From: Chiloscyllium plagiosum
Lineage: Eukaryota
NCBI RefSeq assembly: GCF_004010195.1
Contig: NC_057756.1
Coordinates: forward strand, 467,805 to 531,804
Direction of reading: 5' to 3'
Length of the DNA: 64,000 nt
Shown here: positions 2,465 to 60,397 of the stretch, one piece after another
How positions within the stretch are numbered: position 1 is the stretch's first letter
Layout of the letters: every line of letters starts with the position of its first letter
The notes under the pieces: model-generated
Told to the model about the DNA's origin: nothing
Seen by the model: the letters and a program-made list of their open reading frames with translations, nothing else
Databases searched by the model: none
Position numbers and translations under genes: made by a program

Positions 2465-2491
2465 AAACTAATAATCTCTTCGAGCAACTGG
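2465..2491 (+). CDS. Micro-exon 1 (27 nt, phase 1-1) of unnamed coiled-coil gene; xTNNLFEQL
   Basis: atttcttcctttag|AAACTAATAATCTCTTCGAGCAACTGG|gtaaga; paralogous to exons 9 and 17. Confidence 0.8.
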
Positions 2492-2680
2492 GTAAGAAAA
2501 AAAAATGATTTTGAAGATTTGTCTATGTTTTTATCCAAAGAAAAGTGCATTGAAAAACTTTGGCGGAAGAAACAGAACTGTATGTTTATTCTCGTTTGAT
2601 TTCTTCAACTCAATTCAGCCGTTTTTGACTAATATCGTTTACAGCAGATAATATTGTTAACTAGATAGAAATCTCAATTT

Positions 2681-4925
2681 TAGAACATAGAACATAGAAC
2701 ATTACAGCGCAGTACAGGACCTTCGGCCCTCGATGTTGCGCCGCCCTGTCATACTAATCTGAAGCCCATCCCATCTACACTATTCAATGTATGTCCATTT
2801 GCCTGTCCAATGACAACTGAAATGCACTTAAACTTGGCGAATCTACTACCGATGCAGGCAAAGCATTCCATACCCTTACTACTGTCTGAGTAAAGAAACT
2901 ACCTCTGACATCTGTCTTATACCTATCTCCCCTCACTTTAAAGTTGTGTCCCCTCGAGTTTGCCGTTCCCATACTTGGAAAAAGGCTCTCCCTGTCCACC
3001 CTATCNNNNNNNNTCGTAAGACATTCCTTCCATACCAGGCAACATCCTAGTAAATCTCCTCTGCACCCTTTCCAAAGCTTCCACATCCCTCTTATAATGC
3101 AGTGACCAGAACTATACACAATACTCCAAGTGTGGCCATACCAGAGTTTTGTACAACTGCAGCATAACCTCCTGGTTCTGGTACTCAATCCCTCTATTAA
3201 TAAAGGCCAAAACACTGTATGCCTTCTTAACAACCCTGTCAACCTGGGTGGCAACTTTCAGGGATCTGTGTACATGGACATCGAGATCTCTCTGCTCATC
3301 TGTGCTCCCAAGAATCCTACCATTAGCCCTGTACTTTGCATTCCGATTACTCCGGCCAAAGTGTATCACCTCACACTTGTCCACATTAAACTTATTTGCC
3401 ACCTCTCAGCCCAGTCTGCATCCTATCTATGTGTCTCTGCAGCCTACTACATCCTTCGTCACTATCCACAACTCCACCGACCCTAATGTCGTCCTCATAT
3501 TTACTAACCCACTCTTCTAAGCCCTCATTCAGGTCATTTAAAAAAATGACAAACAGCAGTGGACCCAATACCGACCCTTGTGGTACGCCGCTAATAACTG
3601 GACACCAAGATGAACATGTTCCATCAACTATAACCCTCTGTTTTCTTTCATCAAGCCAATTACTGATCCAAACTGCTATGTCTCCCACAATCCCATTCCT
3701 CCGCATTTTGTATAATAGCCTATTGTGGGGAACCTTATCGAATGCCTTGCTGAAATCCATATACACCACATCAACCGAATCACTCTCAGCTGTTTGGTCA
3801 CTTTGTCAAAAAACTCAATAAGATTAGTTAGGCACGACCTACTCTTCACAAAACTGTGCTGACTGTCCCTGATCAGATATTCTTTTCTAGATGGTTATAA
3901 ATCCTATCTCTTATCATCTTTTCCAACACTTTACCAACAACTGAAGTGAGACTCACTGGTCTGTAATTACCAGGGTTGTCTCTGCTACCCTTTTTGAACA
4001 AGGGAACCACATTTGCTATCCTCCAGTCCTCAGTCACTATTCCTGTAGACAATGATGATTTGAAGATCAATGCCAAAGGCTCGGCAATCTCTTCCCTTGC
4101 TTCCCAGAGGATCCTAGGATAGATCCCATCCGGCCCAGGGGACTTGTCTATTTTCACACTCTGCAGTATTTCGAATACCTCTTCCTTGTGAACCTCAATC
4201 TCTTCTAGTCTAGATGCAAGTATCTCTGTATCTTCCTCGCCAACATTTTCATTTTCTATAGTGAACACTGTCGAAAAATATTTATTTAGTGCTTCCCCTA
4301 TCTCCTCTGACTCCACATACAACTTCCCACTATTATCCTTGATTGGCCCTAATTTATTCTTTTATTCCTGACATACCTATGGAAAGCCTTAGGGTTAACC
4401 CTGATCCTATCAGCCAACAACGTCTCATGTCCTCTCCTGGCTCTTCTGAGCTCTCTTTTTAGGTCTTTCCTGACTTCCTCGTAACCCTCAAGCGCCCTAA
4501 CTGAGTTTTCACATTTTGTCCTAACTTAAGCCTTCTTCTTCTTCTTGACCAGAGATTCCACTTCCTTAGTAAACCATGGCTCACACGTTCTATATCTTCC
4601 TCCCTGCCTGACAAGTACATACTTATCTAGGACATACAGGAGCTTTTCCTTGAATAAGCTCCACATTTTTAATGTGCTCATCCAGTGCAGTTTCCTTCCC
4701 CATTCTACGCTTCCTAAATCTTTCCGAATTGCATCATAATTTCCCTTTCCCCAGCTGTAACTCTTGCCTTTCCCTTTCCATCACTAAAGTAAACCTGACA
4801 GAAGTATGATCGCTGTCTCCAATGTGCTCACCTACTTCCAAATCTAGGCTCGTTACCCAGTACTAAATCTAAAGTGGCTTTGCCCGTTGTAGGCCTGTCT
4901 ACATACTGTGTCAGGAAGCCCTCGT
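2681..4925 (-). mobile_element. CR1-clade LINE (HER1-like), 5'-truncated, decayed ORF2 RT
   Basis: KSPGPDGIYPRIL, YRPVSLTSVVGK, VYMDFSKAFDKVPH, SGVPQGSVLGP; (agaacat)n tail at 2681-2702; 8 N at 3006-3013. Confidence 0.93.
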
Positions 4926-5689
4926 TTAGGCATGATGGATCATTGTTGAGGTCCACTATAGGATTGGGATTACAGATAATGCATGAAATCGGTCGAGGTC
5001 AGCTATCTTCATATTAGGGCACTCCTTCCTTTGCTGAATTACAGTTTGAAGAACAAAAAGAAATATCAGGCAGGTTATGCCTCGGTGACAAATCTCAAAG
5101 CTATTTCAGACATACTGACCACTAGAATCACATGTCAACTGGGAAAGTATTGACAAGTCATTGATGTCCTTTAGCAGTGCATTTTCTGCTGGCTAGGTGA
5201 TCAGAACACTCCACATGAAGTGCTGTCAAGGTGTCGATACAATGATACATTCTACACTTCGTTTGCATGTTCAGGGGATTATCAATACAACTATTATCAG
5301 TGATAAAGCTAAGGGTCTGCTTCCACGCTGTGTGACTCTTTGACTCTATGGAAATAAAGCTAAGGTTGAGACAATAGATGACAATAGGGCATAATTTACG
5401 CAGCCTTTTTTACATCCAAAGAAATAGTTCTCAATATTATATGTGAGGCTACTTCCATTTTTCTGTTTGTCATTAAGGACCTGCATGATTTGAGCTTGCT
5501 CTACTGCTGTAAGTTACAATCTTTCCCTCATGGCTCAGCATCTAAAATACATTCTCTAATTGATGAATTCAACCTGAAGCAGAGCATCTGTTTAAAACAA
5601 AAGCCTCCATTGCAATTTTCCTTAGCTGATCCCCAGGTCTTATCAGAGGGCCACAACTGCACAACTATTTCAAACCCAGTTACTTTGAC

Positions 5690-7486: not shown

Positions 7487-7513
7487 TAAAATCGCAGTTG
7501 GAAAAAGATAAGG
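7487..7513 (+). CDS. Micro-exon 2 (27 nt); VKSQLEKDK
   Basis: ttgtttacag|TAAAATCGCAGTTGGAAAAAGATAAGG|gtaatg; paralogous to exons 10 and 18. Confidence 0.85.
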
Positions 7514-9270: not shown

Positions 9271-10199
9271 TGACGATGACTATAACATGATTAGTTCAAT
9301 AAAAAAAGACATAACGTCCTGTAGGAAGACCAACAAAACTTGATCATGTGGTTGAACATATCAATGAAATTAACAATAAAAAACCTCTAATCAAATCTCA
9401 GTGGTTTTCCCATCCAGAAAACTTGCAAAAAATGTACGCAGAAGGTGATTCGAATTGTATCACATCGATATGCAGGAAGCTAGAAAGGTGTTGTTTTCTA
9501 GATCTTAAAGCAGATACACTGAGATAAAAATGTAATAGAGGTACAGAAAATACCAACGTGTTTCCTTGAAGTGAACATCAATTTCCCTTTTCTTCCCATG
9601 ACAGCTGTAACACAATAGAAAAAAAATTATACATTGATTGGGGCGAAGTGCCTGTTTCCACGCTGTAGGGAATCTAATCTAATCTCTTCTCAAAATAAAT
9701 GGCGTTTAAATATATTTGTAGTGTAAATGAGCAAAACACATTAACTGCTTGTGCATGGCAAAATGAGGCAGTTAGCCCATTGCTCTTGCCTACAACGATT
9801 GGTCTTATATTCAATACGTTTGTAGTTTAGTTTTAGGTAAGTAGATAGTTTTGTTTTGGTTGAATAGTGGGCTGTTTAGTAACAATAGTACTGAGTTATG
9901 GCCTTGTTCTTTGTACTGTTTTTTTTTCCTGTTCTGATGGTGTCTTCTTTCCTTATATGCAAATGTTTTGTAAAAGATTTTTAAAAAACCGTGCGAATTC
10001 TCCAGTGTGACTAACTGAGTGGCTGTTGTCTGTCAGTTACTAATTTTGATTTATCAATGACAATGCAAGGTAAAATAACCTGTGCTGCATTGCATGCAAT
10101 GTTGGTCATGATATACAATGGACATTCCAATTAAGTGCACCGATATCTTAACAGTGCTGATATCCACTCCTGAAAGATTTTCCTTTTTTACTTTTTAAG

Positions 10200-10235
10200 A
10201 TATACGCAGATTGAAGGAAGCTCTGAAAGTTGCAG
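10200..10235 (+). CDS. Micro-exon 3 (36 nt); DIRRLKEALKVA
   Basis: ttactttttaag|ATATACGCAG...GTTGCAG|gtgaga; 26/36 nt identical to exon 11 (hand count). Confidence 0.88.
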
Positions 10236-13300: not shown

Positions 13301-13306
13301 CTTCCA

Positions 13307-15325: not shown

Positions 15326-15352
15326 AGGAAAGCTTGGACAGATGCCAAGAAG
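15326..15352 (+). CDS. Micro-exon 4 (27 nt, Cys exon); EESLDRCQE
   Basis: tttctcacag|AGGAAAGCTTGGACAGATGCCAAGAAG|gtaatc. Confidence 0.85.
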
Positions 15353-15850: not shown

Positions 15851-15877
15851 ATTTGCAGCACTATTCGAAAAATGACG
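15851..15877 (+). CDS. Micro-exon 5 (27 nt); DLQHYSKND
   Basis: ctctctgtcgattag|ATTTGCAGCACTATTCGAAAAATGACG|gtaggt; starts DLQ like exon 9 and follows a Cys exon by ~500 nt as exon 9 does. Confidence 0.72.
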
Positions 15878-19578: not shown

Positions 19579-19605
19579 ACCAACACCTGAGAGATGTGAA
19601 AGCAG
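19579..19605 (+). CDS. Micro-exon 6 (27 nt); DQHLRDVKA
   Basis: cttcttgcatcag|ACCAACACCTGAGAGATGTGAAAGCAG|gtaaaa; paralogous to exon 14 (DERLRDAKE). Confidence 0.85.
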
Positions 19606-43830: not shown

Positions 43831-45523
43831 ATTCATTGGGTCATTTCCTTCATGATTGTGAAGGGACATGCAATTTAAAATGAAACTAGAGAAAGACGTC
43901 AATATTGGAAAAAAATCACTAATTGAATGGAGGGAGAAGGAAACTATAAACAAAAGATGAACTAACACATGAATACGAAAATATGCATGGACAATCTGTA
44001 AACTTGAAACAGGCTGTACTTAATGGAACGAGTATTTGCATGTTGAAAAGTATTGAATGTTAAGGACACATTAAATGATGAAGGAGTTTGTAAATCTCAA
44101 GAAGTAAGATAACAATTTGATTACTATTTGAATTCACTTAAGGCTATCCGACTTCTAACTCACAGAAAAGGAGACTGAAGAAGGAACATAAATGCATGTA
44201 GGCTAGCAGGACTTGAGGATTACAGATTTAAGTTGCTTAATGAAATTCAGCGTTAAATAGACTAGTGCAAAAGAAGATCAAAACCAGCCAGAATATTTAT
44301 TTGTCATAAGGACAGAAAGCAATGACTGTGTTGAGTACTTTTCTCAAACTGGACCATAATAGTCAATGACTTTCATGAACACCCACTTTTAGGATCAATA
44401 CCAATTGGCCGATGGAATTTTCTCGACAGAAAAGTAATGTGATGCATTCTGGAAAACACAAAAACAGTAGCAAGGGCAATTTGTCCAAAATGGCACAGTT
44501 CAAAAAATGCTGATGAAGCACTGAATCTGTTGAGTTGCAATTATTGGAATTAGAAAGTGGGAAGACATTTTGCGAAGGTAGTGGGAACGTTTATTTGATC
44601 ATAGTTTCTTCTGCAGAAATACGTATTAGGAAAGAATGAATTTTATGTTTCATGTTTACAAAGTTCCCAATTAACGAATAACAACATTCTCATATTCACT
44701 TCTGACAACCATAACTTTGGATGGATGTGTAAGTCCTTGAGCTTTTAAAGAGATTTATTAGGTTCATCACAGAAATTAGAGGGGAGAGTTCATGAAGTAA
44801 GGTTCAAAATCCGAATGATTTCTGTTTGCATCAAAGGAATTTGTGTTGAGATTTGAAGTACAGAATTATGCTATTTATGGAGAAGGTCGAAAACGAAAAC
44901 GTATTCCGATTTGATGGTAGTAGAGGTTTTGGGCTAAATTTGTTTTAATATTCGGCAAATGAATGCTGTAAGTTCTTCAAAACAGTTTTTCCTTGCCCCA
45001 ACGAATGGAAACAATTTGGAATCTGCTAACCATAAACATATTGAAGTGCGGAAAAATTGATTGCCAATTGCGGGAAATATTTCGAGAAAGCAAAATGGAG
45101 TGAGATGAATTATTATGTTTTATCACATTAATTAAGTCACAGACCTGTTTCCCTCGTTTTCATAAAAAAACTTGTGAATTTATCGCCGACCGTGTTATTA
45201 TTAACGTAACATGAAGGAGCATGAGAGATTTATTTAGCGTGCAATGTGCAGTTCCTGGACAGAAGACAGAGCGAACATTATCGAGGTCAGTCATTAAGTG
45301 TTCAACCACTAGAAAATGTAATTGCACTTTGGGAGAATAGCTAAAAATGAATATATTAACTGCAAACTGTTGAATAGTCAATGCCAAATAATGCTACAAA
45401 GTAGATAATTTATTCAGGGTGTCAAATGCTGACGTGTAGATCAGCCAGTAGCAAAAAAAAAGCAAAACGCTGAGAATGTTACGAATGAATGCACAATATT
45501 TAATGGATGGATTTTTTTTGCAG

Positions 45524-45559
45524 AAATACGCAGATTAAAGAAAGCTTTGGAAGACAAAC
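45524..45559 (+). CDS. Micro-exon 11 (36 nt); EIRRLKKALEDK
   Basis: ttttttttgcag|AAATACGCAGATTAAAGAAAGCTTTGGAAGACAAAC|gtgagg; clear paralogue of exon 3. Confidence 0.88.
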
Positions 45560-45779
45560 GTGAGGAATGATCTAAATTGTGGGTTATAGTAATTAAAAAA
45601 AACAGATTAAATGCCACCATTAAGGAGTTCCACTGCTACTTATTATCACATCCTTTGAAAACTTTGATCACAATCTTTGATTGCTCATTCTATCTAAGAT
45701 CGTGACCTTCAGGCTATCAAGAATGTCAGGCTCTTTATCACTGCCATGCTTGTTGCTTAAATGAATGTCCATACAGTCA

Positions 45780-46880
45780 TAGAGTCATACAAGTCCTACA
45801 GGATGGAGGCAGGCCCTTTGGTCAAAAATGGCCCACGCTAACCCTATTTCTGCACATTGGCCCATACTCTTCTAAACCTTTTCTGTCCATGTATTTGTCC
45901 AAATGCCCTTTAAATGTTGTTAATGTACCCACCTCAACCACTTCTGCTGGCAGCTAATTCCATATGCATACCACCCTCTGAGTAACATAGTTGACCCTCA
46001 GGTTCTCTTTTATTCTTCCCTTTTAACTTTGAACTAATGCCCTCTTATCCTCTATTCCCCAACCTTGGTTAAAGATTGAGTACACTCACCCTATCCATGC
46101 CTATTATGATCTTATACACTTCTATAAGATCCCACCCACATCCCCAGTCTCCTATGCTCCAAAAAAAAGGACCTAGCTTGTCCAACCTCCCCTTAAACAT
46201 CAGACCATTGAGTCCTGGCAAGATCGTTGTAAATTTCTTCTGCACTCTCCCCCGTTTAATAACAACTTTCATTTGGCAAGGTGACCAAAACTGAGTATCA
46301 TACTCCAAGTGTGGCCTCACCTACGTCCCGTACAACTGCAACATAACTTCTCAACTTCAGTACTCAATGCCCTGACTGGTGGAAGCCTGTGCGCCAATAA
46401 TCTTCTTTACTGCCTTGCCTACATGTGACTCCACCTTCAGAGAACCGTGCACATGAACTTGAAGGTCCCTCTGTTCCACTACACTCCTTATGGCACTAGC
46501 GTTCAGCATGAAACTCCGACCTTAAATGACTTTCCAAAATGGAAGCCCTCACAATTATCTATATTAAACTCCATTTTCCATTCCTTTGCCCACTTACCCA
46601 GCTGATCAAGATTTTACTGCAATTTCTGATTACCTGCCTCACTGTCCACAATACTGCCTATTTTAGTGTCATCTGCAAACTTACTAATCATGCCTTGTGC
46701 ATTCTTCTCCAAATCGTTGATGTAGATAATAAACAGTAATGGGCCCAGCACCAATCCTTGAGGCACTCAATTAGTCACAGTTCTCTAGTCCAGCAAACAT
46801 CCTTCCTCTATTACACTATGCTTCCTACCATCAAACCAATAATGTATCAAATTTGCCAGCTCCCCTGGATTCCAAGCGCA
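45780..46880 (-). mobile_element. CR1 LINE 3' fragment
   Basis: RPHLEYDTQFWSP, DLIEVYKII; (catagagt)n tail. Confidence 0.88.
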
Positions 46881-47687
46881 TTCATATTCAATTGCTTTTT
46901 TGTTTGTTTTCTCCAAATATCGATGGTTAACGGATCTGGGACAATCTGTTGATGCATTTATATGAAGCAGTGCCATTGAAGTAACATCACGTGTGATTAT
47001 AATCAGTGTGCAGATGAAACACAAGCCTTTACACATGCGATCACTTTCTCATGAAGTGTACGTGGGTTACTTTCAAGCTTGAACCGTCAACTTATTGAAT
47101 TGACAGTGATAAAGACTGTATTTAAAGTTTTTTCATCCAGATCAATCATTTTACAAAATATAATATAGCGGATTTCATTTGTCTCATCACACTTTGTAAA
47201 CTTTTCAAATTTACCATAATGAATTTTATTTTGCAATTAGACCCTGGCAACTTCTTCGATAATTATGGTGAGTACCATTGCACATGGAACACAACTCAGC
47301 CTCCAGGCAGCAGAAACCTGTATTACGTTGCTCTGCTCAAGACAAAGATGGGTGGCTTGATTGACCTGTTTAGTAGATGAACTGTTCTTATCTATCATTC
47401 CCTTCCAAATTAAGACTGTAATTTTATGGAAACGCACACAATGCAGATTTTTAATTCCCCTACTCCATCTGTCATTTTTAGGATTGAAGGAAATACGTCT
47501 TCATCAAACTCTGAACTATGCTTTCACTGATAATGCTCATGTTCATCTTCCAGAAAAGATGCTCAGTTCACCTTTTTTTTTTGACAAAAATAGTAAATGG
47601 ATACTATGATATAATCCACTTCCTCGACCAAATGAATTGCAGTTACCCACAAATGCCAAACAATTTATAACATTTATCCCATAACAG

Positions 47688-47714
47688 AAGTGGAACTGCG
47701 AGAATGCAAAAGAG
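47688..47714 (+). CDS. Micro-exon 12 (27 nt, Cys exon); QVELRECKR
   Basis: cccataacag|AAGTGGAACTGCGAGAATGCAAAAGAG|gtaaac. Confidence 0.85.
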
Positions 47715-48788
47715 GTAAACACGTTAATTCTATTGGTTACTCCAAAGTCTTTTGATTTCAGTATAGTTAAGTTAATGTAACATCTGAATAGTTGCGTGAA
47801 TTAACAAAAAGAATAGTTAGGCATTGAATCAGTTTTTCAATGTTCTATAATGGGTGAAAAATATTTGGACAAGTAATGCATACTTAAAATGCGTACTTCC
47901 TTTCTATGATATGCTTGTTATTTTAACACAGACAGAATGGAGGAATTGCATGGACTGCTCAAGATGGACACAATTAAAGATTGACACGATTTTCAATAAA
48001 CAAAAGAAGACTCTGTGAAACTGAAAGAATTTGTGCAAGTGAATACATCCACAAATTAAAAAAAAACTCACCAAGTATGATCAAGAGCATGTAGAAGAAT
48101 TTCAAGATTTCATATTGCCTCCTATAGTCATCAAAACAATTCGATTTTCTAACAGGATAAACAGAAGCAATTGATGTGAAGTCAACCAGCTCCATAAATA
48201 AATCAAATGGAATCTCGTCAGATCATACATTTTAGTGATATTAATTCAATAATTAAAATTTACTCCATGCTATAGAATAATTATTTTCTCTTCTTCAAGA
48301 TATTGTAATTAGAATATTTAACCCCCCCCTCAAAGAGCAAATTTTGCCTTCACTTAATGTGAGGCAAACAAAAATAAATCTCTGTGTCTCGAGACTCTCC
48401 CCAATAGTGTTTGGGCATTGATTAACATGACAGTATTTTTCCTGAGAGGCAATTGAAGAAATAATTGTGATTTCGTTGATCATGCAATTCTTGCCACGTT
48501 TCCTTATTTAACTTATTAAACAATAATGTAATAAGAATGTCACTTCTGGTTAAACTGACATTGTAGTTATTAGATTTGTACGGGTGACATATCAACACTG
48601 TTGTTGGCATTAATCATTCATTTGTATTCTCCACGCTCATAATCAGTTCCATTTGGATATTAAATCAGGAATCAAACGAACGACAAAATGCAATGTCTCG
48701 CTTTTAATCTATTTCAATGATGAATATCATCACAAGAAATTCGAAATGATTTAATTTCATAAGCTGAATTTTTATTTTGCCCATTCAG

Positions 48789-48824
48789 AATTAAATGAAA
48801 CGAAAACAGAACTTAAAGAAGCAG
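48789..48824 (+). CDS. Micro-exon 13 (36 nt); ELNETKTELKEA
   Basis: ttgcccattcag|AATTAAATGAAACGAAAACAGAACTTAAAGAAGCAG|gtgagt. Confidence 0.88.
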
Positions 48825-49439
48825 GTGAGTTTAAAAAAAGACATACGCGTTTTGATTTCCAGTGATAAAGTGTATCTTATGCTTCACTTTAAGAAATTGT
48901 CAATTTATTTATTATGTGGAAGATAACTCTACACGATCCACAGTCGGACCCATTTAGTTATCATAATGACAAAATGCAACACTTCTTTTATTTGTTTACT
49001 GGGGAGAAATAAAAAGCAGGGATGGTCATGGGGGAAGAGTCGAAATTCAGTAGGATCATTCTTAGCCAATTCTCTTTTTGTCTCATTTCAATCTTGTAAC
49101 CTTTACTTAATGAATCCTTTGAATATGTTTCGTCGATTCTGCTGCCATTATGCATGCCCACCAGCAGAAACCAGTGGCTCAAACAAATTTCACATACAAT
49201 GAACTGGTGTAGTGCACCCATGAGTACCTTCAGTGGTATAACAATGCCTCTTTCTATTTGACACTGTCATAAGTTTATGAAATTTGTGAATTTGGTGGAA
49301 CATTGAAATGTGGCAAGGAGAATAATATTTCTGTCTGCTGCAAACTATTTTACAATTCATCTGCCTTGCATCCATTAGAGCAATCCCAACTCTGCTTCGC
49401 ATTTCATTTTCATCTTTCTTTGCTCGCTGCCCAGGAACA

Positions 49440-49800
49440 CAGGATGTCGTGGTGTCGCCTTATGTAGATTTATAAAATCATGATGGGCACAGATAAGGTA
49501 AATAGCAAAAGCATTTTCCCAGGAGCAGGGCACTTTGAAACTAGAAGGCATTAGTTTAAGGTGAGAGGAGAAAGATTTAAAATAAATCTGAGCGACAACT
49601 TTTTCACACAGACGGTGATTCATATGGGGAAAGAAAATGTTAGATGAAGGTGTAGCTATCACATTTAAAATACATTTGGACAGGCAAATGAATGGAAAGT
49701 TTCAGAGGGATACGAAGCAAATGGGATACCTTTAGTTTAGGAGGCATGGACGGATTGTGCTGAAGGGTCTGTTTCAAAGCGTCTGTCCGACTCTCTGATT
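49440..49800 (+). mobile_element. CR1 3' end fragment
   Basis: tttaaggtgagaggagaaagattt, ttttcacacaga. Confidence 0.75.
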
Positions 49801-52800
49801 CTATTACACGTTCCTTCCTCTATTGCACACACTTTTGCCAATCGCTTCACAGATGTTCATATCCACCATCTATTACAGAATTCCTGTACTCTGCATCAAT
49901 TGGCGGTTTCACAAGAAGGTGAAGTAGTCAAAGGCAGTGCAAGAAGAGAGCAGGGAAGGCAAGCAAGACATCATGGTGATCAAAACGTTTGAAACTGATA
50001 GAGGACAAATGCAAAAAGTGGGAAGAGTGACTACGAGAGGAGAACAGAACCATTTGAAAGTGGGAGAAAGTGGTGAGAAGCAGTGATGTTGTAGAGGGAG
50101 TGATGAATAAAACTGAAAGAGGATGGTGTGACAGTATTCCTTCCTTGTCTTTCCTTGTATTGCTGAATATATGTTACTCTTTAAATGCAGGCAACAACTT
50201 AGGACCTTCTAACTAGTAATATTACAATGCAACAAGTGGAAGTTCCTAGGCTGCATATTCGGCATTTGTCATTGAAGCATCTGCAGTCAAGTTGAAAAAC
50301 ATTTCTGACCATTGGTAGAAGAGTAAACTAGCAAGACATTTAGGGCTGACAACAGGGAAGGAACATAAAGGTAAAATAAGTTACATAAATGCAATGGACA
50401 GATTTATTAATTTCAATGTTTTAATATTCTATTCAGTTCACAAAATGAATTAGAGTTATTCAAGGTGACTCAAGCTGGCTTCCTCGGTTTTATCTGTCTC
50501 TGCATTCAGAAAATATTATACTTATAGCATAGTCGAAATTAAATGCTACTAGTGAATTTGAACATGCAGTATCATGTTTGTCAAGCAAATTAGGACACCT
50601 GTGCTATTTTGGGTCTATTGGCATTGCCAAAGTATGATGTTTAATTCAGGTGAAAAGCACATTATACACTATAACTTCGGAGTAGTTATGGGGTGGTTTG
50701 GATTGCTTTGGCCTATAGTGAATTTATGCTTTAATGCATGAGTGCAAATCTCAACATCCAGGATGCTTCCTGGAGGATGAAGTTTATAGATGGTAAAGGA
50801 ATACAATGAAGAGTAGCTGACTTGGTAATTGCATAATACCGGGCGAGAAAGTTTTGCATATTGAAATACCAATATATTTGAAATGCATTTTGCCCCGCTG
50901 AAGAAACAATGAAAATCTTTGAATTGTGTCTTTACAGAGGACAGGTTGGGCGAGTGCTTGAAAGGTGAATTACACCAGTGTATATATGTTGTGCGTTGAA
51001 TTATATTCATACTTTAATCAATATCCAGATATGTCACATAGAAGTTCTGGTTTGTAATTATTTAAAACTCACAAACCTCCTAAAAAAATCTCCGTTTTTA
51101 ACAATAAAAGAGACTAGGCCCCTGTGCAGTAGACTAGGCCCCTGTGCAGGTTGCAGAAAATATATCAAGTTTCACCCAGACGTGACAGTTGAAAGATGTA
51201 CTGGCCTTCCCCTGAAGTCCCAACATCAGAGATGCCAATCTTCAACCGATTATATCATATTCTTTATGTATGCATTCATTTATTAATTTATCCTGTAAAC
51301 ATGAAATAGGGAAATTTAAATGACTGCCAACTTCATCATTGTTCAATTAGAAGCGTTGACAAACTCTAAGACTAAACAGTACTTAGATACTAATAATCTG
51401 GTCACTGGCGTTGAGTACACGAGGGCCATTAAGCTCCTGATCTCAGTACGCATTTGGGAAAAAAGGATAAAATATGAGGCTTGACTGATTTTCCTTGAGA
51501 AGAAAGTAGCACTTGGCAGAATATGGCATCAAGAAGCCCTACCTAAACCGCAGTAACTGGAACCAGGTGTGGTTGTGTGTGCTGTGGCAGGTGATCTCTC
51601 ATTACTTTAAATTGTGCTTAGTGCAAAATAAGATGACTGTGGTGTTTTAAGTCAATGATCTCAGCCCTAGGTATGACAGAATGAATTGTTTAGACCAGGG
51701 ACCTACTTCACAATGACAAGCGCTACGACTCGAGGTCAGAAGTAATGATGTTACTAAAGATTGCACAATAATATTATTGATTCATCAAATGCGGAGGCAT
51801 TTCATGTCCATGTGCAGAAGGACCTGTTCAAAATTAAGGTTTGAGGTGATAAGTTGCAAAGAAAGTTTTCACCTCAACAATACAATTATTGATATCTCCA
51901 ACAAGAGGTAATCTGTCTACTGTCGTTTGATTTAAGAATTTAGCATTTATGAAACTTCCGCTATTGATGCTTATGTGGTTACCATTGATCAGGTATGGAA
52001 CTGCATCAGCCATATGTTTACATGGTAAAAAAAAAGTGACATAGAATCTGTGGAATCTATGGCAAAGAAAATATCTTCATTTCCACAGAAATGCCCATCT
52101 GCAACCTATTGTGTAGAAATTTGAAGTGTAATGGAATACTCTGCATTTGCCTGGATCGTTGAAGCTCTATAAAATTGATAAGCTCAATCATACCCAGGAC
52201 AAAACAGCCTGCATAATTTATATAGAATCATGGAAGGCCATGATTCAGTCAATCACACTAGCGCCTAAAATAAGTACCATTACCTAATACCAATATTCTG
52301 CATTTCTCCCGCACCATTGAATATTGTATGTATCCAAATATTCATCCATAACACTCTTGAAAGCCTTCCCCTCACAGAATTTTAAGCATTCAAGATCTTC
52401 AACGTTGCAGCAGTCTGTTTCATTTCAGAAATGTCCTGCAGTGATTTACTGACGAAGCATCAAAAGAATGTTTTAAATTGATAAGCTGTACTATCTTTGA
52501 GATATTACATATTGCAGCTGATGTACGGTTGATATACCAACTACATGCTCCCCTTCAACATCCAGCATCCTGGCTTTGAACTTTATTGCTTTTCCTTCAT
52601 TTTTAAGGTGTGAAATGCTGGAGCTCCATTCCTCACAGTAGGCCAGATATCTCCAATCTCTCCATAAAGCATTGCAATTAGTATGATTGACAACAAAATC
52701 TAACGAATTTTTCTTGAAAAATATCAGCACAAGATGCAATTTCGTTGAGTTATTAAAAAATCATGCGGCTTCTTGAATGGTTAGAAAATAAGTATTATTC

Positions 52801-53892
52801 CATTTAATGGAAAAGTTATGGAGCCAAAAAACATAGTTTCGTGAGTTTGCTTAAGAACCAACTACAGCAATCTTTTCATGATATGAATTTCTAACACACG
52901 CACAGCATGTGTCAATTGGAGGCAGAGTCAAATATGACCGTTTTAATAAAATTGGATAATAATCTGATGATCAAGAATATGCTGTGCTTTAGTAATAAGT
53001 ATAGGAAACTGATATTACAGAGATTTAGCACTGGTGTAGCACGTAGCATTAGTTTCATCAGGTTTGTCATTACCATTGATTTAATTATGAAGAATTGATT
53101 CGTTTCTTCAATTGATCCTCATACCTTTACTTATGATCTTCTCAGAAATTGAACACAAGTGCAAATCTGACGGTTAGTAAGTTTAAATTAATAAAATTTT
53201 GGAATTTCTTCTGAGTGGTCTACTTTAAAATTGCTATTTAATTTCATAAGCAGTGGTGGTATAGTGATCAGACGAACTGTTTAGCGAAACGATGCAGCCT
53301 TGATCATAATTTTCGTCATACTTCTAGATGCAAATAAATCAGAATATCAAACAGTCGAATACATTTTTAGGTTAAATAAAAAATGCAAATAGATCAGTGA
53401 TCTAAAAATTCCACCTGCATTGTTTAAGCTGCTTGCACCATTCTCCAATTAATTAAAATTGTACTGTGAATTGATATCCGCATTACGAGCCAATGGTAAG
53501 TGGGAATGGTTTGCCTATGCCTATGCAATTTTGAAAGAAAATTAAAGCGCAGTCTGTAAGATGTCATTGCAGTTCTGATTTATTAAAGGTATGATTCCTC
53601 TAAAATGCACTCTTGCACTTTCAGTTGTAAGAAAGGAAACGCAAACATGCATGGTATTGCAAAGAACTGCAAAGCATTTACTCTCGTGAAAACACAATTT
53701 CTAACAAACATGTGGCGTACACAGCCTTTTCACAGTTGTGTGTTGCACTGCATGTATACTGAAGTTAATTTATAAAGTTCAGGGCATTTCCTCCAGATTA
53801 TGAATCAGTTTTTTTAACGTATGTCAGGAACCTTGGAAATTAGCCAGAAGCCAAAATTGACGAACTTTGCAAGTATCAATGTGCTTTTTTTT

Positions 53893-54184
53893 AGATTAGA
53901 TTAGATTACTTACAGTGTGGAAACAGGCCCTTCGGCCCAACAAGTCCACACCGACCCGCCGAAGCGTATACCACCCAGACCCATACTCCTACATTTACCT
54001 CTTCACCTAACACTACGGACAATTTAGCATGGTCAATTCACCTAACCTGCGCATTTTGGGATTGTGGGAGAAAACCGGAGCACCCGGAGGAAACCCACAC
54101 AGCCACGGGGAGAATGTGCAAACTCCACAGAGAGAGTCGCCTGAGGCGGGAATTGAACCCGGGTCTCTGGCGCTGTGAGGCAGG
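53893..54184 (-). mobile_element. 5'-truncated HE1-like SINE flanked by ~105-bp direct repeats
   Basis: (agatt)n tail; repeats 53783-53887 and 54183-54286. Confidence 0.9.
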
Positions 54185-55153
54185 CATTTCCTCCAGATTA
54201 TGAATCAGTTTTTTTAACGTATGTCAGGAACCTTTGCATTAGCCAGAAGCCAAAATTGACGAACTTTGCAAGTATCAATGTGCTTTATGCTACACCGGAG
54301 TGTAAACACCATCAATATGTTATTTGTAGCAGTAGAATAAGACCTGATTAATTTGGACGTCCAATTTGCACTTGGAAACAATTTTTTTTACTGTATCTAA
54401 CTTTTGACTTTCCCAGATGACGTGACGAATTGTCTTTTAATTGCCTCCTGGCTCTATATATTCTGATCTCCCAATCATTTAATGTTGATTTGATTATCCT
54501 TGATACACCCCAATCAACTGCCGCTTCCATCCACTTGAGGATTAATTGTCGTATTATGGAGCAGAAAAAACAAACAAACCTGTGAACATATATATGTTTG
54601 TGGACAAGTATGAGTGCGCATGTTGGCAATGTTTACAATATTTTGACATAATTCGTCTCCAAGGCATTGACGTTGTTGCTTTAACTCAGACATAGTAAAC
54701 ACGTGACATTTTTGCCAATGCACAAAGATAAGTTTCAGTAATATTTCGAATCTGATGTGTGAAATTCCATTTTTCTTTACCACATTTAAATTTTATGTAA
54801 AATTGTGGAGGATAAAGTTCCATCAGCATTGGAATTGGAATTGTTGGTCTAGATAAATTGCATTCACAATTGTAAGATTGTTTTGAGTTGAAAATAACTG
54901 CGAGAATTCCTAATCCATAGTATTTCCATTTCCTTAGAAGTTGGTGGATGAATTCAGCAGAACCTTGAAATACTCTGCATTCGTGAACGATGCCAAATAA
55001 ATGGGAATTAAGTTTTCATTACTGTGCAGACAATCACGTCAGGCCATTCAACTTTGATCCAAGTACTTATGACTCTTAGGTCATCGAATTTAATTTATGA
55101 AGGTGTATCAACACTGTAAATAACCTGAATTGTATTTTTTTTCATCAATTCAG

Positions 55154-55180
55154 ATGAACGTCTGCGTGATGCAAAAGAAG
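55154..55180 (+). CDS. Micro-exon 14 (27 nt); DERLRDAKE
   Basis: catcaattcag|ATGAACGTCTGCGTGATGCAAAAGAAG|gtattg. Confidence 0.85.
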
Positions 55181-55431
55181 GTATTGATCACATCGTAATC
55201 AGAGCTATATACATCCCGATTTGCATCTGGACTTGTATATAGCTTTCATTTCACTTTCAAATTTATTGCATAAGAATGACTTGTCAGTGACATCTCAGTT
55301 TAAATTTCATTATCTCCAGCATTTCAAAATATTATAAAATGTTTATTTTATTTCTCCATGTGTTTATTCTGTGGAAGGAGACAGGCTCAAAACGTGCTGG
55401 AATGTTTACGTCTAATATGTGCACTAAACTT

Positions 55432-55925
55432 GGGTGGCATGGTGGCTCAGTGGTTAGCACTGCTGCCTCACCGCATCAGCGTCCCAGATTCGATTCCAGC
55501 CTCGGGCGACTGTCTGTGTGGGGTTTCGGCCTCTCCCTACAGCTCCAACCCTGGCAACGTCCTTGTAAATCTTTTCTGAACTTTTTAAAGTTTTGCTACA
55601 TCCTTCCGATACTAGAAGAAGGTGAGGAGTGCAGATGCTGGAGAGTCGAGAAGTGTGGTGAAAAACCACAGCAGGTCAGAAAGCATTTGAAAAGCAGGAA
55701 AGTTGATGTTTCAGGCATAAGCCCTTCATCAAGAATGCCCTGATGAAGGGATTATACCCGAATCATCGACTCTCCTGCTGCTTGGATATTGCCTGATCTG
55801 CTGTGCTTTTCCACATGCTTCCGATAGAAGGGAGATGAGAATTGCAACAACATTCCAAAGTGGTCTCGTCAATGTCCTGTACAGCCACAGCATGGCTCCC
55901 AACTCCTATACTCGATGCTCCAACC
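55432..55925. mobile_element. SINE 5' half joined to a minus-strand CR1 piece containing a Penelope-tail hairpin (55615-55815)
   Basis: ggtggctcagtggttagc; cctggcaacgtccttgtaaatc; cccttcatcaag..ctgatgaaggg inverted arms. Confidence 0.7.
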
Positions 55926-56290
55926 TCCCCTAGAACTGCAAATTATTTGGTCCGGCTTCATATAATGACCCTACTTCAGAAATTCCTCTTCCTTTCTTTA
56001 TTTGTTTTGGTTTGTTTCAATGTTTATTTCTATAAATTATTTCCACACTTGCCAGCCTTTCAGGAAATCTATTCCAATTGAAGTCCATGCAGTGATGGAA
56101 CCAAATGCATCCAATAACCTTTACTTTTTGACAGAATTTTTCAGAAGACTTTGTGTTGTCATCAGTGGAAACAAGTTCTCATTCCTACCTTGGTCAGACA
56201 AGTCATGGTCGTTAATCCCTTTTTTCTTTGTTGTAATGGAAATTATTTAATAACGATAATGATTCTAATTTTTATTATTACTGTCTTCAG

Positions 56291-56326
56291 AAATTCAGAG
56301 GTTGAGGATGGATTTGAAGGATTGCG
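56291..56326 (+). CDS. Micro-exon 15 (36 nt); EIQRLRMDLKDC
   Basis: ctgtcttcag|AAATTCAGAGGTTGAGGATGGATTTGAAGGATTGCG|gtaagg. Confidence 0.88.
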
Positions 56327-57068
56327 GTAAGGAGATGGATTATTGATGAATGTTATATTAAGGTGTGTTTTTGCAGCTTCGTTCTTTTGTAAATAACCGT
56401 CTAGCCTACTTAAAAAGGGGCAGTTATCACCCTAATCGGTATGGCATGATACTGCTTATACCATGAAAAAGAAACGTTCGACCGATAGAACTAAATCGGG
56501 ATTATTTCTAGTATCATTTAGCAGAATCACAATAAGTTACATAGGCAAGTGTCAGGACTCTACTCAACCATTTTAAAATAACTTTGTGCATATATTAGAG
56601 ATAAGGGCGTTCAGATTCATAAATTCAAGTGTATCATTTACTTTGACGATTGATCATACATTTCATCGATGACTACAGATTCAAAGCACACTTGTTAGCA
56701 ATCCCAGTACACAGTCTGAAATGTTAGAAATTCCTATAATCGTTATCTGTCGAATTCTGAAAACGAAAATAATATGAATTCTATGCTACTTACTGACCAG
56801 TAGTAATCAAATTGAATGGAGTGACTTAACGGACTGATTCGTCGACTGATTATACTTTTAGTTCAATGTGAACTTACCATGGGATAGTATTTATTCATCC
56901 ATGCCAAATTCTGTGTACCTGGATAATCTTTTCTTTCACACATTAAATGCAATGTGTAGAAAAAAGGCAAATTATATTCTGTTTCAAGGAAAAACAAATG
57001 CATTGCGAATGTATGAGCCACCTTGTTTTCGAGATGTCAACTTAATTTGATATCAATTGTATTCACAG

Positions 57069-57086
57069 AGGAGAACGCTTGCAATA
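57069..57086 (+). CDS. Micro-exon 16 (18 nt, shortened Cys exon); EENACN
   Basis: gtattcacag|AGGAGAACGCTTGCAATA|gtgagt; acceptor/start cacag|AGGA matches exon 4. Confidence 0.72.
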
Positions 57087-57451
57087 GTGAGTCAGCGACA
57101 ACATTTTTTTCCTGTGACATATCTTTTCGACGGATATTCTTTCTTTAAGCATTAGAGGTGGGCCTTGTTAATTGGTCAGTATTATAATAATTTGGCATTA
57201 TACCATTTTACCAAACTGCATCACCCAGATACCAAATATAACACATCTGACATTCAATCCTGTTAAATACAATGGATGTAAATATGCAACGGCAGAGTTT
57301 TGTTGGCGACCAATGCGTGAATACTAAACTCCATTGCATCTCCCTAGAATAATATGTAATCTTGCCGAGTGCAGCCTTTTATTGAACAGTGCTAAGCTGC
57401 TCATTAACCCATTTTGAACTATTCTGCAAATAATTTCTCTTTTTATTTAAG

Positions 57452-57478
57452 AGATCGAAGACCTTCTTCAAAATATAG
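57452..57478 (+). CDS. Micro-exon 17 (27 nt); KIEDLLQNI
   Basis: ctctttttatttaag|AGATCGAAGACCTTCTTCAAAATATAG|gtaagc. Confidence 0.87.
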   Translation, partial: RSKTFFKI

Positions 57479-58959
57479 GTAAGCAATTAATGTCTTGAGG
57501 TGGATGTTGCAAAGTTACTTGTTAGTTGTTGGTATAAGAATGATATATTCTCCCTATATTTTGTTAGTAACACAGAAATTAGTTAGGTCCCATAGTGTGA
57601 TCAAGATCATTGATATTTTTAGTCAGCCATTGAATTCAATTTAAATTTTGAGAAACTATCAATGTTAGTTGGAAAGCAGTTGTAAACTAAATTTGTTTTT
57701 TCAATTAATTTGCATCTAAAGTCATTGAAAGTTACGATTGGAAAACAACTCGATAATGTAAAAAAAGAAATTGCTGCAGTTATAAGATGATAATAGTTAA
57801 AGAGATTCCTCAGGAGGAGTCGGAACTTTACTACTCACAATGAACATTTCTGCATCAATTGAAATGAAAGAACATCGTGAACATTTTGTACTGCCGAAAT
57901 GTTGCAATCCATGAAGTGAAATTGCAGAATGGCATTTTGGTGTCAAAGCGAAGCATATCTCGAGTCCACAGCAACCAGAGCATCAACTATAGAATGAATC
58001 TCATCAGTATGGAACATATTGGCACGAGTTATCCAGGAACACGTTACCAACAACACAGAGAACTGGCTATATCTTCTACCAATCAAATAGCAGAGAATGT
58101 GTGGTTATACGAATCAGGGATTAGCATCCAGGTAAGGAGTTGATTTTACTTTATTTACATGTTGTCACATGTGCTTTGTTACAAAATACAGTGAAAGGTG
58201 AAACATGATGTCAACTCTCTGGTGCCAACTTAAAACAGAAGAACAGACAAAAACATAGAATATAAATGCTGAAAACAATGAAATAGAAAACAAAATAATG
58301 AAGAGATAAAGGCAAAGTGGTCAAATGTACAGTTCTTCTTGTTAAGTGCTCCACCATAGGCTGGTTGGATAGCCACGAATACGCTTTGCTGTGACCCTGC
58401 GGTTGGAACAACTGTCGCCATTCTTGAGCGCCATCTCAGCTCCACCGATGCTGTCACCCTCGCAGGACTTCGCCAATGCAGACACCATTGATGCTCACTG
58501 CTAACGCAGCAGCACAAACTCAACTATACCACAGCCTTGAGTTTGCTTTGGGCTTGCTTCACTGATGCGGCTACTGCTGATACTGTAGGGTTTAGTACTA
58601 GATGCAAACCCACTTCTGCCAACGCTTCCAAGAATTTGCATTGGACATAGAAGCTTCTGGGATCTCAAACCAGACCCCACCTAAGCAACCATGATTCGGC
58701 GTGAAGACCATCTCGGCAATGCAGAAGTTGCAGCAATCCAACTAGTCTTTGACGCTGCTGTCATGAACTCGCACTGCTGGGCCCAATCGCTGCCCCTGGA
58801 GCCGTTGCTGTGGCTGAGCTCTTCAAACTCAGATAAGTAAATAAAAAGGGAAAAAAGAAGGGAGAGAGAGAGAGAGAAAGGAATGAAATGCAAAGTTGCC
58901 CGAGTGGATGAGCCCTGGGCTCACAGGCCTTACTCCACTGGTCTGTTTCTCAAAAAGTC

Positions 58960-59285
58960 ATAGACTAATAGAGTCCCGACAGGGTAAAAGGATTCCATTT
59001 GACCCATCCAGTCTGCACTAACCCTCTGAACAGTGCCCACCCAGACCTAACCCCCTGCCCAATTCCTGGAACCCTGTATTTTGGCATGGCCAATCCACAT
59101 AACATGCTAATCCATGGCCTCTATGGGACAATTTATCATGGTCAATCCACCTAACATGCACATCTTTGGACTGCCGGCAGAAACTGGAGAAACTGGTGGA
59201 AACCCATGCAGACAGACATGGGAAGAATGTGCAAGCTCCAAACAAGACAGTTAACCAAAAGGGAATCGAGTCGGGTTGATCAACC
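58960..59285 (-). mobile_element. HE1-like SINE (degraded)
   Basis: catctttggactg, aacccatgcagac, aatgtgcaagctcca. Confidence 0.7.
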
Positions 59286-60370
59286 ATTGATGTAACTTTA
59301 ATCAGCAGGATCACTGACTGAACAATGGAACAGTATAAATGATTAATAAGCTAATGGTGCAGGATAGGCATTGCAGTTAGGAACACAACCATCAGTCAAA
59401 GCATGATTAAGTAAATAGGAAAATAACAATTTGGCGAGAGTAGATACTCAACTAAGTGAGAAGAGGAGAAGTGAGAGACTACTAAGTGTATTGATTTTTG
59501 CAAGAGCACTGCAAAATCAGCAGTGCACTTATATTTCAATGTAAGCATTGTCAACGGAAGCCTTATAGCTGTGAAAGATAGCTAACAGTGTATGCGAGTT
59601 GGTTTACATCACAGATCACAATGGAGTAGTAATAAATATTATCATTTAAAAATATTTTTGGAGCAGGCTTAAGTACAGATTTGGCTACCTGAAACAAAGT
59701 ACGCATGGCTGATTAGGCAAATGATGCAGGTGTAAAAGAGTGAAATTCTCAGGAGGATTTATGTCCAGTCTGGATATCAGTATCGTTGCCCCCCAAAAAA
59801 GAAGCTCCTGAACTATTTAAGAGAAAAGTTAAATGATTGGATTATTTAGCACAAAGGAAACACGTTCCTGTGGAGATATGTGTATATTATTAAACTCAGG
59901 ATATTCAATAAAATCTCGCAGTGACAAAGAAGAGCTGTTGCATTCAGGTCAAGTGGGAAAACAAAATAAAGCAATGCCTGAGCATTTGGTGCACTAGGGT
60001 GTGGAGAGAAGGAGCCAGTCGAAATATGATCCTGTTGACTCATCATGTAAACAGATTTCTGAACAGCATGAAAGGGTTATGAGTTAAAGATCTGCTAATG
60101 TCACTCTGACACTGCACACTTTTGGAAGTGAACATTACTTGTGATAATCTGTTCAATTCTTTAACTGTTAATCTATTTTGAGGGAAATATGATTTGCTTA
60201 TTGGACTCATTGTCGTGATTCTTGGAATCTAATTCATTATATATTTCAGAATAAGCGAAACAACTTCATTTCCACACTGGAAAGTAGGATATTGCATTGT
60301 AAAAATGTGTTATTCTTGTTAACAGGAGTTAAATGATACATAATTATCAGTACTGCTATCACTTTTTCAG

Positions 60371-60397
60371 CAAGCAAGTTACTAGAAAAAGAGAAAG
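60371..60397 (+). CDS. Micro-exon 18 (27 nt); ASKLLEKEK
   Basis: actttttcag|CAAGCAAGTTACTAGAAAAAGAGAAAG|gtaact; found where the repeat pattern predicted a LxKDK-type exon. Confidence 0.85.

Follow-up and report, generated by a model that had tools for sequence, protein, structure and literature searches.

Do the very short AG..GT-bounded segments that lie scattered through a repeat-laden stretch of shark DNA belong to a gene, and if so, what does this gene encode and where does it end? The stretch, here called the window, comprises the 64,000 nucleotides of C47:467,805-531,804 (+ strand; C47 is contig NC_057756.1) of the whitespotted bamboo shark, Chiloscyllium plagiosum, in an assembly of 3.56 Gb and 101,977 contigs. 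A first-pass annotation, based on the window alone, had proposed that 18 such segments are the exons of a hidden micro-exon gene for a continuous coiled coil. We find it likely that they are exons of one micro-exon gene of about half a megabase, whose product is a coiled-coil rod ending in a B30.2 domain. In such a gene, nearly all coding sequence would consist of phase-1 micro-exons, mostly of 36 and 27 nt, spliced in genomic order; the spliced exons would encode an uninterrupted α-helical coiled coil, assembling into a parallel, in-register dimer; the last phase-1 exon would encode a B30.2 (PRY/SPRY) domain of the type seen in butyrophilins and TRIMs, and thereby place a B30.2 binding head on an extremely long rod; and an N-terminal anchor would hold the protein to a membrane, rod and B30.2 domain both lying in the cytosol. 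As the exons are symmetric, the length of the rod could vary through exon skipping.

The 18 segments are recovered by rule alone (AG, then 18, 27, or 36 nt open in one phase, then GT), independently of the peptide given earlier. All lie on the + strand and have the sizes first described, namely twelve of 27 nt, five of 36 nt, and one of 18 nt, totaling 522 nt or 0.90 % of the 57,933-nt span. Joined, they yield 173 residues without a stop in the phase-1 frame and without proline, glycine, or tryptophan, the commonest residues being L, E, K, and D; the other two frames contain 13 and 14 stops. A collagen-like reading, suggested by phase 1 and lengths in multiples of 9 nt, fails on the lack of glycine in the open frame and on the stops in the others. 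A loose filter finds 36 candidates in the window for the + strand in phase 1, compared to 10, 18, 10, 19, and 13 in the other strand and phase classes. A cross-validated model of splice-site flanks and residue composition, for which 31 exons from elsewhere than the window were the sole training set, finds 18 candidates of at least 14 bits, compared to 4, 3, 0, 1, and 2 in the control classes. The pyrimidine content at positions -22 to -3 averages 0.72 for the 18 exons, compared to 0.48 before any AG; 15 of the 18 end in G, and 12 of the 17 junction codons are D or E.

These counts bear on the simplest objection, namely that A-rich intergenic DNA happens to contain open frames between an AG and a GT. 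The best controls reach ~20 bits, a score that several single exons do not exceed, and four of these exons, 2465-2491, 15851-15877, 19579-19605, and 47688-47714, do not individually rise beyond the controls, so that the case rests on the set as a whole. For the set, an origin by chance is hardly credible: the enrichment is specific to strand and phase under a model trained elsewhere, the continuity of the register depends on exon order, and the signal is absent upstream of the window and continues for hundreds of kilobases downstream.

The coiled-coil nature of the product, already recognized in the first-pass annotation, is borne out by a hydrophobic period of 3.55 residues, whose power is not reached by any of 1000 residue shuffles; the core residues of the predicted coiled coil are Leu, Ile, and Cys. 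Through the modules of 9 and 12 residues described at the time, a register-tracking script follows the heptad register on across the exon junctions. A 36-nt exon covers the heptad positions g-abcdefg-abcd and the 27-nt exon following it efg-abcdef; the pair thus makes 21 residues, exactly three heptads, and the introns fall at two fixed heptad positions, f|g and d|e. Register coherence is a feature that was not used to find the exons; when the 18 exons are put in random order, 8 of 2000 arrangements equal the coherence of the genomic one. The logic extends beyond the window: in the 254 kb read from the window start, at least 60 exons are recognized, and these join to a product of 599 residues with 0 stops. 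All 20 of the 36-nt exons in this larger set start at g, and 23 of the 34 exons of 27 nt start at e; 19 of 21 cysteines occupy the core position d; 55 of the 60 exons end in G, and 48 of the 59 junction codons are E or D, the split codon at nearly every junction being G|AN (Asp or Glu).

The earlier proposal is supported as regards the exons and was too narrow about the gene, of which the 18 segments would make up about a seventh. In 354 kb of sequence, composed of 100 kb upstream of the window and the sequence down to window +253,522, 62 exons score above a threshold that is reached by 2 candidates on the reverse strand; the number of candidates above 12 bits is 124, compared to 22 on the reverse strand. 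The 100 kb upstream contains nothing array-like (bins 1, 0, 0, 0, 0), and no contiguous coiled-coil open reading frame (ORF) of 30 or more residues that would belong to the gene was found anywhere in the 354 kb. Farther along the contig, the array was traced with a degenerate pattern for one exon class, run genome-wide. At three mismatches, the pattern gives noise (181 matches, compared to 154 for a reversed control); at two or fewer, it gives 25 matches genome-wide, 20 of them on C47. Twelve of these lie on the + strand between 651 and 963 kb and extend the array of the window, the last at 963,198; five form a second cluster on the + strand at 4.33-4.51 Mb, and three a third cluster on the - strand at 1.53-1.74 Mb.

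The first-pass annotation had pointed to the flanks as a place to look for immunoglobulin (Ig), transmembrane, and terminal B30.2/SPRY exons. The last of these exists: downstream of the window, at C47:994,519-995,039 (+; L032:319-839) and 31 kb beyond the last pattern match of the array, lies a phase-1 exon that scores 60.9 bits for SPRY (cut-off 26.3) and ends in a stop. In the 100 kb upstream, neither an Ig exon nor a convincing transmembrane exon was found. The acceptor of the B30.2 exon, ...ttttgcag|TG, is in phase 1. Its best solved relative is the B30.2 domain of BTN3A1 (E = 3.2e-22), followed by those of TRIM58, pyrin, and TRIM21 (E = 1e-20 to 1e-19). In a genome-wide SPRY search, in which 150 of 293 candidates were scored, one of the scored matches falls on C47, at 4.578 Mb on the + strand and 71 kb beyond the second cluster, as a 177-residue frame ending in a stop. 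Used as a query, it finds as its best paralogue C47:994,509-995,036 (+; 60 % identity, E = 8.3e-71), and as second best C47:1,296,638-1,297,162 (-; 42 %), which lies downstream, in gene orientation, of the minus-strand cluster. All three exons are preceded by a pyrimidine tract and ...GCAG, and begin with two bases that complete a split codon, which is the phase of the micro-exons. The 10.7-Mb contig C47 thus carries a family of three genes, each an array plus B30.2 exon and one of them opposite in orientation; the B30.2 domains of the paralogous loci at 4.33-4.58 Mb (+) and 1.30-1.74 Mb (-) are 59 % and 42 % identical to that of the window gene. Most of the 150 scored SPRY matches lie on a different contig, C37, at ~9-34 Mb, with intact frames of ~190 residues; they look like the product of tandem duplication of B30.2 exons on a massive scale, presumably in TRIM-like genes.

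With this exon as its 3' end, the gene spans about 525 kb of the + strand, from roughly C47:470,269 to 995,039, with introns of 0.3-19 kb that reach up to 18.7 kb around 27-nt exons. Extrapolation from exon density gives a total of probably ~125 exons, and an estimated rod of ~1,250 residues and ~186 nm. The array could also be a pure coiled-coil gene that ends before C47:994 kb, the B30.2 exon then belonging to a separate gene downstream. Between window +254 kb and the exon at +527 kb, the locus is known through pattern and protein matches, not as sequence, and in Chiloscyllium punctatum the annotation has the B30.2 exon as a protein of its own. We nevertheless regard a division into two genes as very improbable: the pattern matches keep to one strand and to their spacing until 31 kb before the B30.2 exon, the B30.2 ORF lacks a start context and has just a phase-1 acceptor, which matches the phase of the array, the layout of an array followed by B30.2 recurs at two other loci, and a chimaera protein joins rod and B30.2 in one chain.

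This protein emerged from an exhaustive search of representative sequences, which returned 2682 matches at E <= 0.001. Among the best 150 of these, which were listed, the nearest relative of the shark gene is P0170, Callorhinchus milii XP_042192744.1, an uncharacterized protein of 1697 residues that comes from automatic gene modeling. It starts with a hydrophobic segment directly followed by RAKRRKK, continues into a rod of ~1,450 residues, and ends in a B30.2 domain at 1501-1697 that is 35 % identical to the shark exon. Between residues 353 and 604, the rod consists of 23 consecutive modules of 12 or 9 residues, each initiated by D or E; in 500 shuffles, the longest such chain averages 53 residues and never exceeds 99, and seven long, coiled-coil-rich B30.2 representatives, mostly RING-bearing TRIMs, gave 0-51. 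Fourteen of its 17 rod cysteines are at d, and the motif [LIVMF]xxC[KQRN]xx[LIVM] occurs 11 times in P0170 and 12 times in the shark product, compared to 24 times in the 130,552 residues of all other fetched proteins. Chimaera and shark thus have in common the D/E-initiated modules of 12 and 9 residues, Cys at d, and the C-terminal B30.2. The chimaera rod is interrupted at ~900-1010 by an insert rich in Pro, Gly, and Thr, with about a dozen tandem octapeptides of the type DKDPTGST, which has no counterpart among the recognized shark exons; the non-repetitive N-terminal 330 residues of P0170 have no detectable counterpart in the shark DNA read, and residues 1-340 gave no usable match in the protein atlas.

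That automated annotation might miss or mislabel such a gene, as had been anticipated, is supported on both counts. For C. punctatum, the B30.2 exon is modeled alone, as the 178-residue 'hypothetical protein chiPu_0007878', 98 % identical to the exon described here. A word-index search with the B30.2 domain of the window gene yielded four matches among 30 candidates, and one with the paralogous B30.2 domain, for longer proteins, yielded just distant TRIM/B30.2-type proteins (four matches among 268 candidates). Where relatives have been modeled, their names are borrowed: P0170 is called 'nuclear-pore anchor-like', P0132 of Scyliorhinus canicula (XP_038668997.1) 'TRIM39-like', a Narcine relative 'zinc-binding protein A33-like', a Leucoraja relative 'TRIM69-like', and a shorter relative from C. 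milii 'TRIM58', earlier 'butyrophilin 2A2'. Pfam finds no RING, B-box, or Ig domain in P0170, P0146, P0279, P0132, or P0141, and only SPRY in P0170; a RING regular expression, which recovers the RINGs of ordinary TRIM representatives, finds none in P0170. Residues 1-138 of P0132, its N-terminal third, match fragments of long interspersed nuclear elements (LINEs) on both strands of the shark locus, and the model appears, judging by these matches, to have joined pieces of retroelement ORFs onto the 3' end of a family member, with its last micro-exons and B30.2 exon. Isoforms of the relatives differ by cassettes of 9 and 6 residues in Narcine and of 9 residues in C. milii, as many as exons of 27 and 18 nt would encode. 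The first residues of the skate member are MNFALMLVIAVLGYLPA, hydrophobic like the start of P0170. A hydrophobic segment opens P0170 and P0279; P0146 and P0141, both short, are without one. As far as the accessible literature extends, which excludes subscription journals and is in part abridged, no description of such a gene was found.

How firmly can the segments be called exons of a functional gene? A number of points weigh against this. The exons were ascertained as open frames of fixed lengths, which makes their lack of stops and their exact lengths partly circular. The word-index searches, with their 30 and 268 candidates, surfaced no C. plagiosum protein model for the gene. Window 44100-64000 was compared with reads from two single-cell polyA RNA runs, a possible RNA contig run, and a DNA run. 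These cover no micro-exon and no joint: all reads that could be placed fall on interspersed repeats (at 53.4-54.7, 55.4-56.0, and 62.0-62.7 kb), and one of the RNA runs contributed nothing. This outcome speaks neither for nor against the gene, and polyA-primed reads would be expected to pile up at the 3' exon, outside this stretch. The connection of the array to the B30.2 exon rests, apart from the chimaera model, on position, strand, phase, and the layout of two paralogous loci, and suggests rather than establishes one transcription unit. The coiled-coil likeness of the shark product to P0170 (blastp E = 1e-4 in a set of 282 proteins) is, taken by itself, a weak indication of kinship. A search of the 100 kb upstream and the start of the window did not find the 5' end, and none of 325 + strand ORFs of at least 55 residues in these 100 kb encodes an Ig, RING, B-box, or convincing transmembrane exon; Ig exons may lie farther upstream.

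Divergence within the array also has a part that counts on this side. Exons of the same class in the window are 52.7, 64.1, and 39.2 % identical at codon positions 1, 2, and 3, compared to 27.7 % in their flanks, figures which are inflated by the grouping of the paralogue classes according to peptide similarity; by blastn, no pair of in-window exons has similar flanks. Exons 10200-10235 and 45524-45559, for example, are identical in 7 of 11 residues, with flanks at random identity. In five pairs from younger duplications, the exons are identical at 107 of 138 positions (77.5 %), compared to 975 of 1362 aligned columns in the flanks (71.6 %, or 59.5 % with gaps counted), and their differences, 8, 12, and 11 at codon positions 1, 2, and 3, show no third-position excess, so that constraint at the level of residues looks weak. 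Our reading is that constraint acts on frame, length, splice sites, and heptad pattern, and little on other residues; this fits a structural rod, and also a partial decay.

Decay in the stronger sense would mean that the micro-exons are mostly a relic of tandem duplication, that only a short 3' part is expressed with B30.2, and that most segments in the window are pseudo-exons. The near-neutral divergence of the recent duplicates relative to their flanks is what this would predict, and the annotated relatives from skate, ray, catshark, and chimaera are short, with 200-370 residues, also where the species is an elasmobranch with a large genome; neither a gene model nor RNA came to light for the window gene, and introns of up to 18.7 kb around 27-nt exons make for demanding splicing. 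We consider a decaying array unlikely all the same. All 60 of the accepted exons are open and in strong splice contexts, the alternation of g and e starts and the placement of Cys at d are maintained along 250 kb, and exons that have lost any similarity in their flanks retain identity with a codon structure. The register is preserved by genomic order, being matched in the 8 of 2000 permutations cited above; the chimaera model predicts a 1,450-residue rod of the same modules as one protein; and among the short shark models, P0132 at least is a LINE mis-join and not a true short form. A functional gene thus remains our preferred reading, and its exons would all be spliced into one mRNA; any immune or cytoskeletal role would be a further step.

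The search for the beginning of this gene produced one candidate, which was rejected. Heuristic scans for phase-1 internal exons and for first exons with ATG and a hydrophobic stretch, from -39 kb to +2.4 kb, gave nothing convincing; a strict scan of the shark DNA for a transmembrane segment followed by basic residues gave 0 matches; and tblastn of P0170 and its relatives against the 354 kb gave just LINE matches to the spurious N-terminus of P0132. A looser scan picked out an ATG-initiated hydrophobic ORF at window 1181-1264 (+), 1.2 kb upstream of exon 1, which could be a first exon and was discarded because it abuts a minisatellite and because the control strand gave eight matches to four. 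The minisatellite, at 1265-1792, has a 30-bp unit in 16.8 copies with 71 % matches.

For the assembly and orientation of the rod, the chimaera relative serves as a guide. A dimer model of two copies of P0170 380-520 scores 0.43, and the best of three controls 0.00. In microbes, 21 of 30 proteins whose solved structure is a pair of one chain reach the mark applied, and none of 23 single chains does; in eukaryotes, 17 of 29 pairs reach it, though just 1 of the 7 that lack an older solved relative, and none of 30 single chains does; coiled-coil dimers being abundant among solved structures, the pass may reflect likeness to these. The runs agree in at least 91 % of contacts, with a predicted local distance difference test (pLDDT) of at least 82 for the partner. 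Contacts run from i to i', including Cys444-Cys444' and Cys465-Cys465', and all four cysteines of the segment are in the interface. Since contacts between equal residue numbers imply a parallel, in-register dimer, the model suggests that the rod is a parallel dimer. By analogy with the chimaera and skate relatives, in which a short hydrophobic start gives way to basic residues, we further infer that the shark protein may have an N-terminal membrane anchor, with rod and B30.2 domain in the cytosol; by the positive-inside rule, a basic cluster after a hydrophobic segment marks the cytosolic side.

The main alternative to this topology is a cleaved signal peptide followed by a secreted or luminal rod, in which the cysteines at d form an interchain disulfide ladder and B30.2 forms the head. 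It would accord with the placement of 19 of 21 cysteines at d and with the dimer model, in which Cys444 and Cys465 each face the equivalent residue of the partner; symmetric exons of phase 1 are a typical mark of extracellular modules, and the skate start MNFALMLVIAVLGYLPA could be read as a signal peptide. We hold it to be doubtful, as the RAKRRKK right after the hydrophobic segment of P0170 marks the rod side as cytosolic under the positive-inside rule, the short relatives P0146 and P0141 are without a hydrophobic start, and the B30.2 domains of BTN3A1, TRIM58, pyrin, and TRIM21 are cytosolic. The anchored, cytosolic rod is thus the topology we carry forward.

Which known proteins does such a gene resemble? 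The parallel with parasite genes, drawn in the first-pass annotation, is one of architecture only: the micro-exon genes of Schistosoma likewise have runs of symmetric micro-exons that permit in-frame skipping, and they encode small secreted parasite proteins that are not known to have heptad logic or a B30.2 domain, unlike the giant rod with B30.2 predicted here. TRIM proteins have a coiled coil followed by PRY/SPRY, a feature they have in common with butyrophilins and which is not diagnostic. By definition, this is not a TRIM, since no RING or B-box was found in P0170, in the other relatives, or in the 100 kb upstream; moreover, the shark rod is ~10 times the length of a TRIM coiled coil, and TRIM coiled coils are antiparallel, whereas the model of P0170 is parallel. 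The B30.2 domain itself does not place the gene within the butyrophilins (BTN), as those of TRIM58, pyrin, and TRIM21 score nearly as well as that of BTN3A1.

The other parallel drawn at the outset, to the heptad exons of butyrophilins and BG genes, holds up well, the shark gene having many tiny heptad-encoding exons and a B30.2 domain at the end. In chicken BG genes, strings of 21-nt exons encode long cytoplasmic tails (Salomonsen et al., 2014, PMC4046983; Kaufman, 2021, PMC8813856), each exon contributing 7, sometimes 8, residues and one heptad (PMC4046983); BTN3A1-type butyrophilins are built of IgV, IgC, and transmembrane segments, several 'heptad' micro-exons, and B30.2 (PMC6790196; PMC8813856; PMC12841164). 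As far as the portions of these accounts available to us describe the two systems, the shark gene is like BG in its many tiny exons with split boundary codons and a fixed heptad piece each, in a very long presumed coiled coil, and in forming a tandem multigene family with variable exon number and dimeric proteins, the shark dimer being a model only. On the same basis, it is unlike BG in its periodicity (36 + 27 nt for three heptads, compared to 21 nt for one) and in its domains (a terminal B30.2 and no Ig exon found, compared to an IgV ectodomain and no B30.2); its size of ~0.5 Mb and its introns of 0.3-19 kb also set it apart. With butyrophilins it has in common, within the limits of the same sources, a terminal B30.2 exon preceded by very short, frame-symmetric heptad exons, which are skippable in BTN; these are few in butyrophilins and at least 60, probably ~125, in the shark, and Ig ectodomain exons were found neither in the 100 kb upstream of the shark window nor in the chimaera model.

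One may go beyond this, more tentatively, and picture an undescribed cartilaginous-fish family of B30.2 sensors, anchored in a membrane by the N-terminus, with stalks of up to ~0.2 micrometre; in sharks, over 100 exons of 27/36 nt in a row would encode them, a longer string of micro-exons than any known. In such a family, the ancestral cytoplasmic module, a long heptad micro-exon rod plus B30.2, would be preserved, as the source of the BTN tails (short rod, B30.2 kept) and the BG tails (long rod, B30.2 lost), with a stalk length tuned in three-heptad steps by the skipping of exon pairs. This full picture is possible, and we would not call it probable. Its attraction for immunogenetics lies in a gene that combines the B30.2 domain of butyrophilins with a very long, BG-like heptad tail; with both features united in the oldest jawed-vertebrate lineage, it is a testable candidate for the ancestry of the BTN and BG tails. 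For splicing, exon definition would be tested to an extreme by a transcript in which ~100 exons, 27 or 36 nt long, have to be joined over introns of 0.3-19 kb, and the serial recognition of micro-exons could be studied there in a natural system. For protein design, it offers exon boundaries locked to a structural repeat: 36 + 27 nt make three heptads, the intron positions are f|g and d|e, and Cys falls at d. For annotation, it documents three kinds of failure: a terminal exon called as a stand-alone protein, LINE fragments fused to 3' exons, and names borrowed from TRIM and nuclear-pore proteins.

Along the window, the array opens with exon 1 at 2465-2491 (27 nt, phase 1-1), the first recognizable one, which at 12.3 bits is weak alone, followed by exon 2 at 7487-7513 (27 nt, 25.5 bits) and exon 3 at 10200-10235, a 36-nt exon with a g-start (gabcdefgabcd; 15.5 bits). 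Exon 4, at 15326-15352 (27 nt, 19.9 bits), has an e-start and Cys at d. Exon 5, at 15851-15877 (27 nt), is the weakest, with less than 10 bits and a pyrimidine fraction of 0.8; it contains an internal register break, and its g-start position matches the g/e alternation between exons 4 and 6. Exon 6, at 19579-19605 (27 nt, 13.0 bits), has an e-start, and exon 7, at 32452-32487 (36 nt, 20.1 bits), a g-start. The long intron between exons 7 and 8 contains a retroelement-like ORF with 165 N at 33,631-33,795; together with a second run at 3006-3013, these make up the 173 N of the window. Exon 8, at 37333-37359 (27 nt, 20.3 bits), again has an e-start and Cys at d, and exon 9, at 37847-37873, is a short module of 27 nt with a g-start and the highest score in the window (28.9 bits). 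There follow exon 10 at 40524-40550 (27 nt, e-start, 23.7 bits); exon 11 at 45524-45559 (36 nt, g-start, 20.3 bits), which, taken with 300 nt of its flank, occurs once in the genome; exon 12 at 47688-47714 (27 nt, e-start, Cys at d, 12.4 bits); exon 13 at 48789-48824 (36 nt, g-start, 23.9 bits); exon 14 at 55154-55180 (27 nt, e-start, 20.1 bits); and exon 15 at 56291-56326 (36 nt, g-start, ending in Cys, 18.0 bits). The one 18-nt exon, exon 16, is at 57069-57086 (16.0 bits), and the series closes with exon 17 at 57452-57478 (27 nt, 21.8 bits) and exon 18 at 60371-60397 (27 nt, e-start, 25.8 bits), the next accepted exon being at window +79,134. All are on the + strand.

Three further + strand candidates of 27 nt, absent from the first-pass annotation, have scores inside the accepted range: 50938-50964, of the e-start type with Cys (17.8 bits), 53146-53172, a weak and possible partner to it (13.6 bits), and 9418-9444, also weak (14.8 bits). 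The register score of the chain, 0.193, becomes 0.187 when 50938-50964 is added alone and 0.196 when it is added together with 53146-53172; the addition of 9418-9444 raises it from 0.193 to 0.196. A fourth candidate, the 36-nt AG..GT segment 61274-61309 just beyond exon 18, was rejected, since it is part of a charged, LINE ORF1-like frame at 61,217-61,560 (+) that has copies at window +190,822 (-) and elsewhere. It is a deceptive 'exon', and a case of how coiled-coil ORFs of retroelements can imitate a micro-exon array.

The remainder of the window, whose GC content is 0.36-0.43, is rich in such elements: many of its long ORFs look by eye like retroelement fragments and have LINE-like matches. 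Interspersed repeats of very high copy number lie at 53,400-54,700, 55,400-56,050, and 62,000-62,700, where summed contig word depth in the DNA run ranges from hundreds of thousands up to 1.7 million; many of the single-cell RNA reads on these repeats carry long stretches of T at their loose ends. At C47:427,819-428,751 (+; L008:15-947), some 40 kb upstream of the window, lies an intronless rhodopsin-type G-protein coupled receptor (7tm_1, 65.9 bits), 99 % identical to the C. plagiosum 'probable G-protein coupled receptor 139'. An attempt to use it as an anchor for synteny failed, as it is part of a shark expansion: a search with it returns 1232 proteins at E <= 0.001, nearly all carrying the name 'GPR139' and belonging to sharks, rays, or chimaera, an indication that receptors of this type have expanded very strongly in chondrichthyans.

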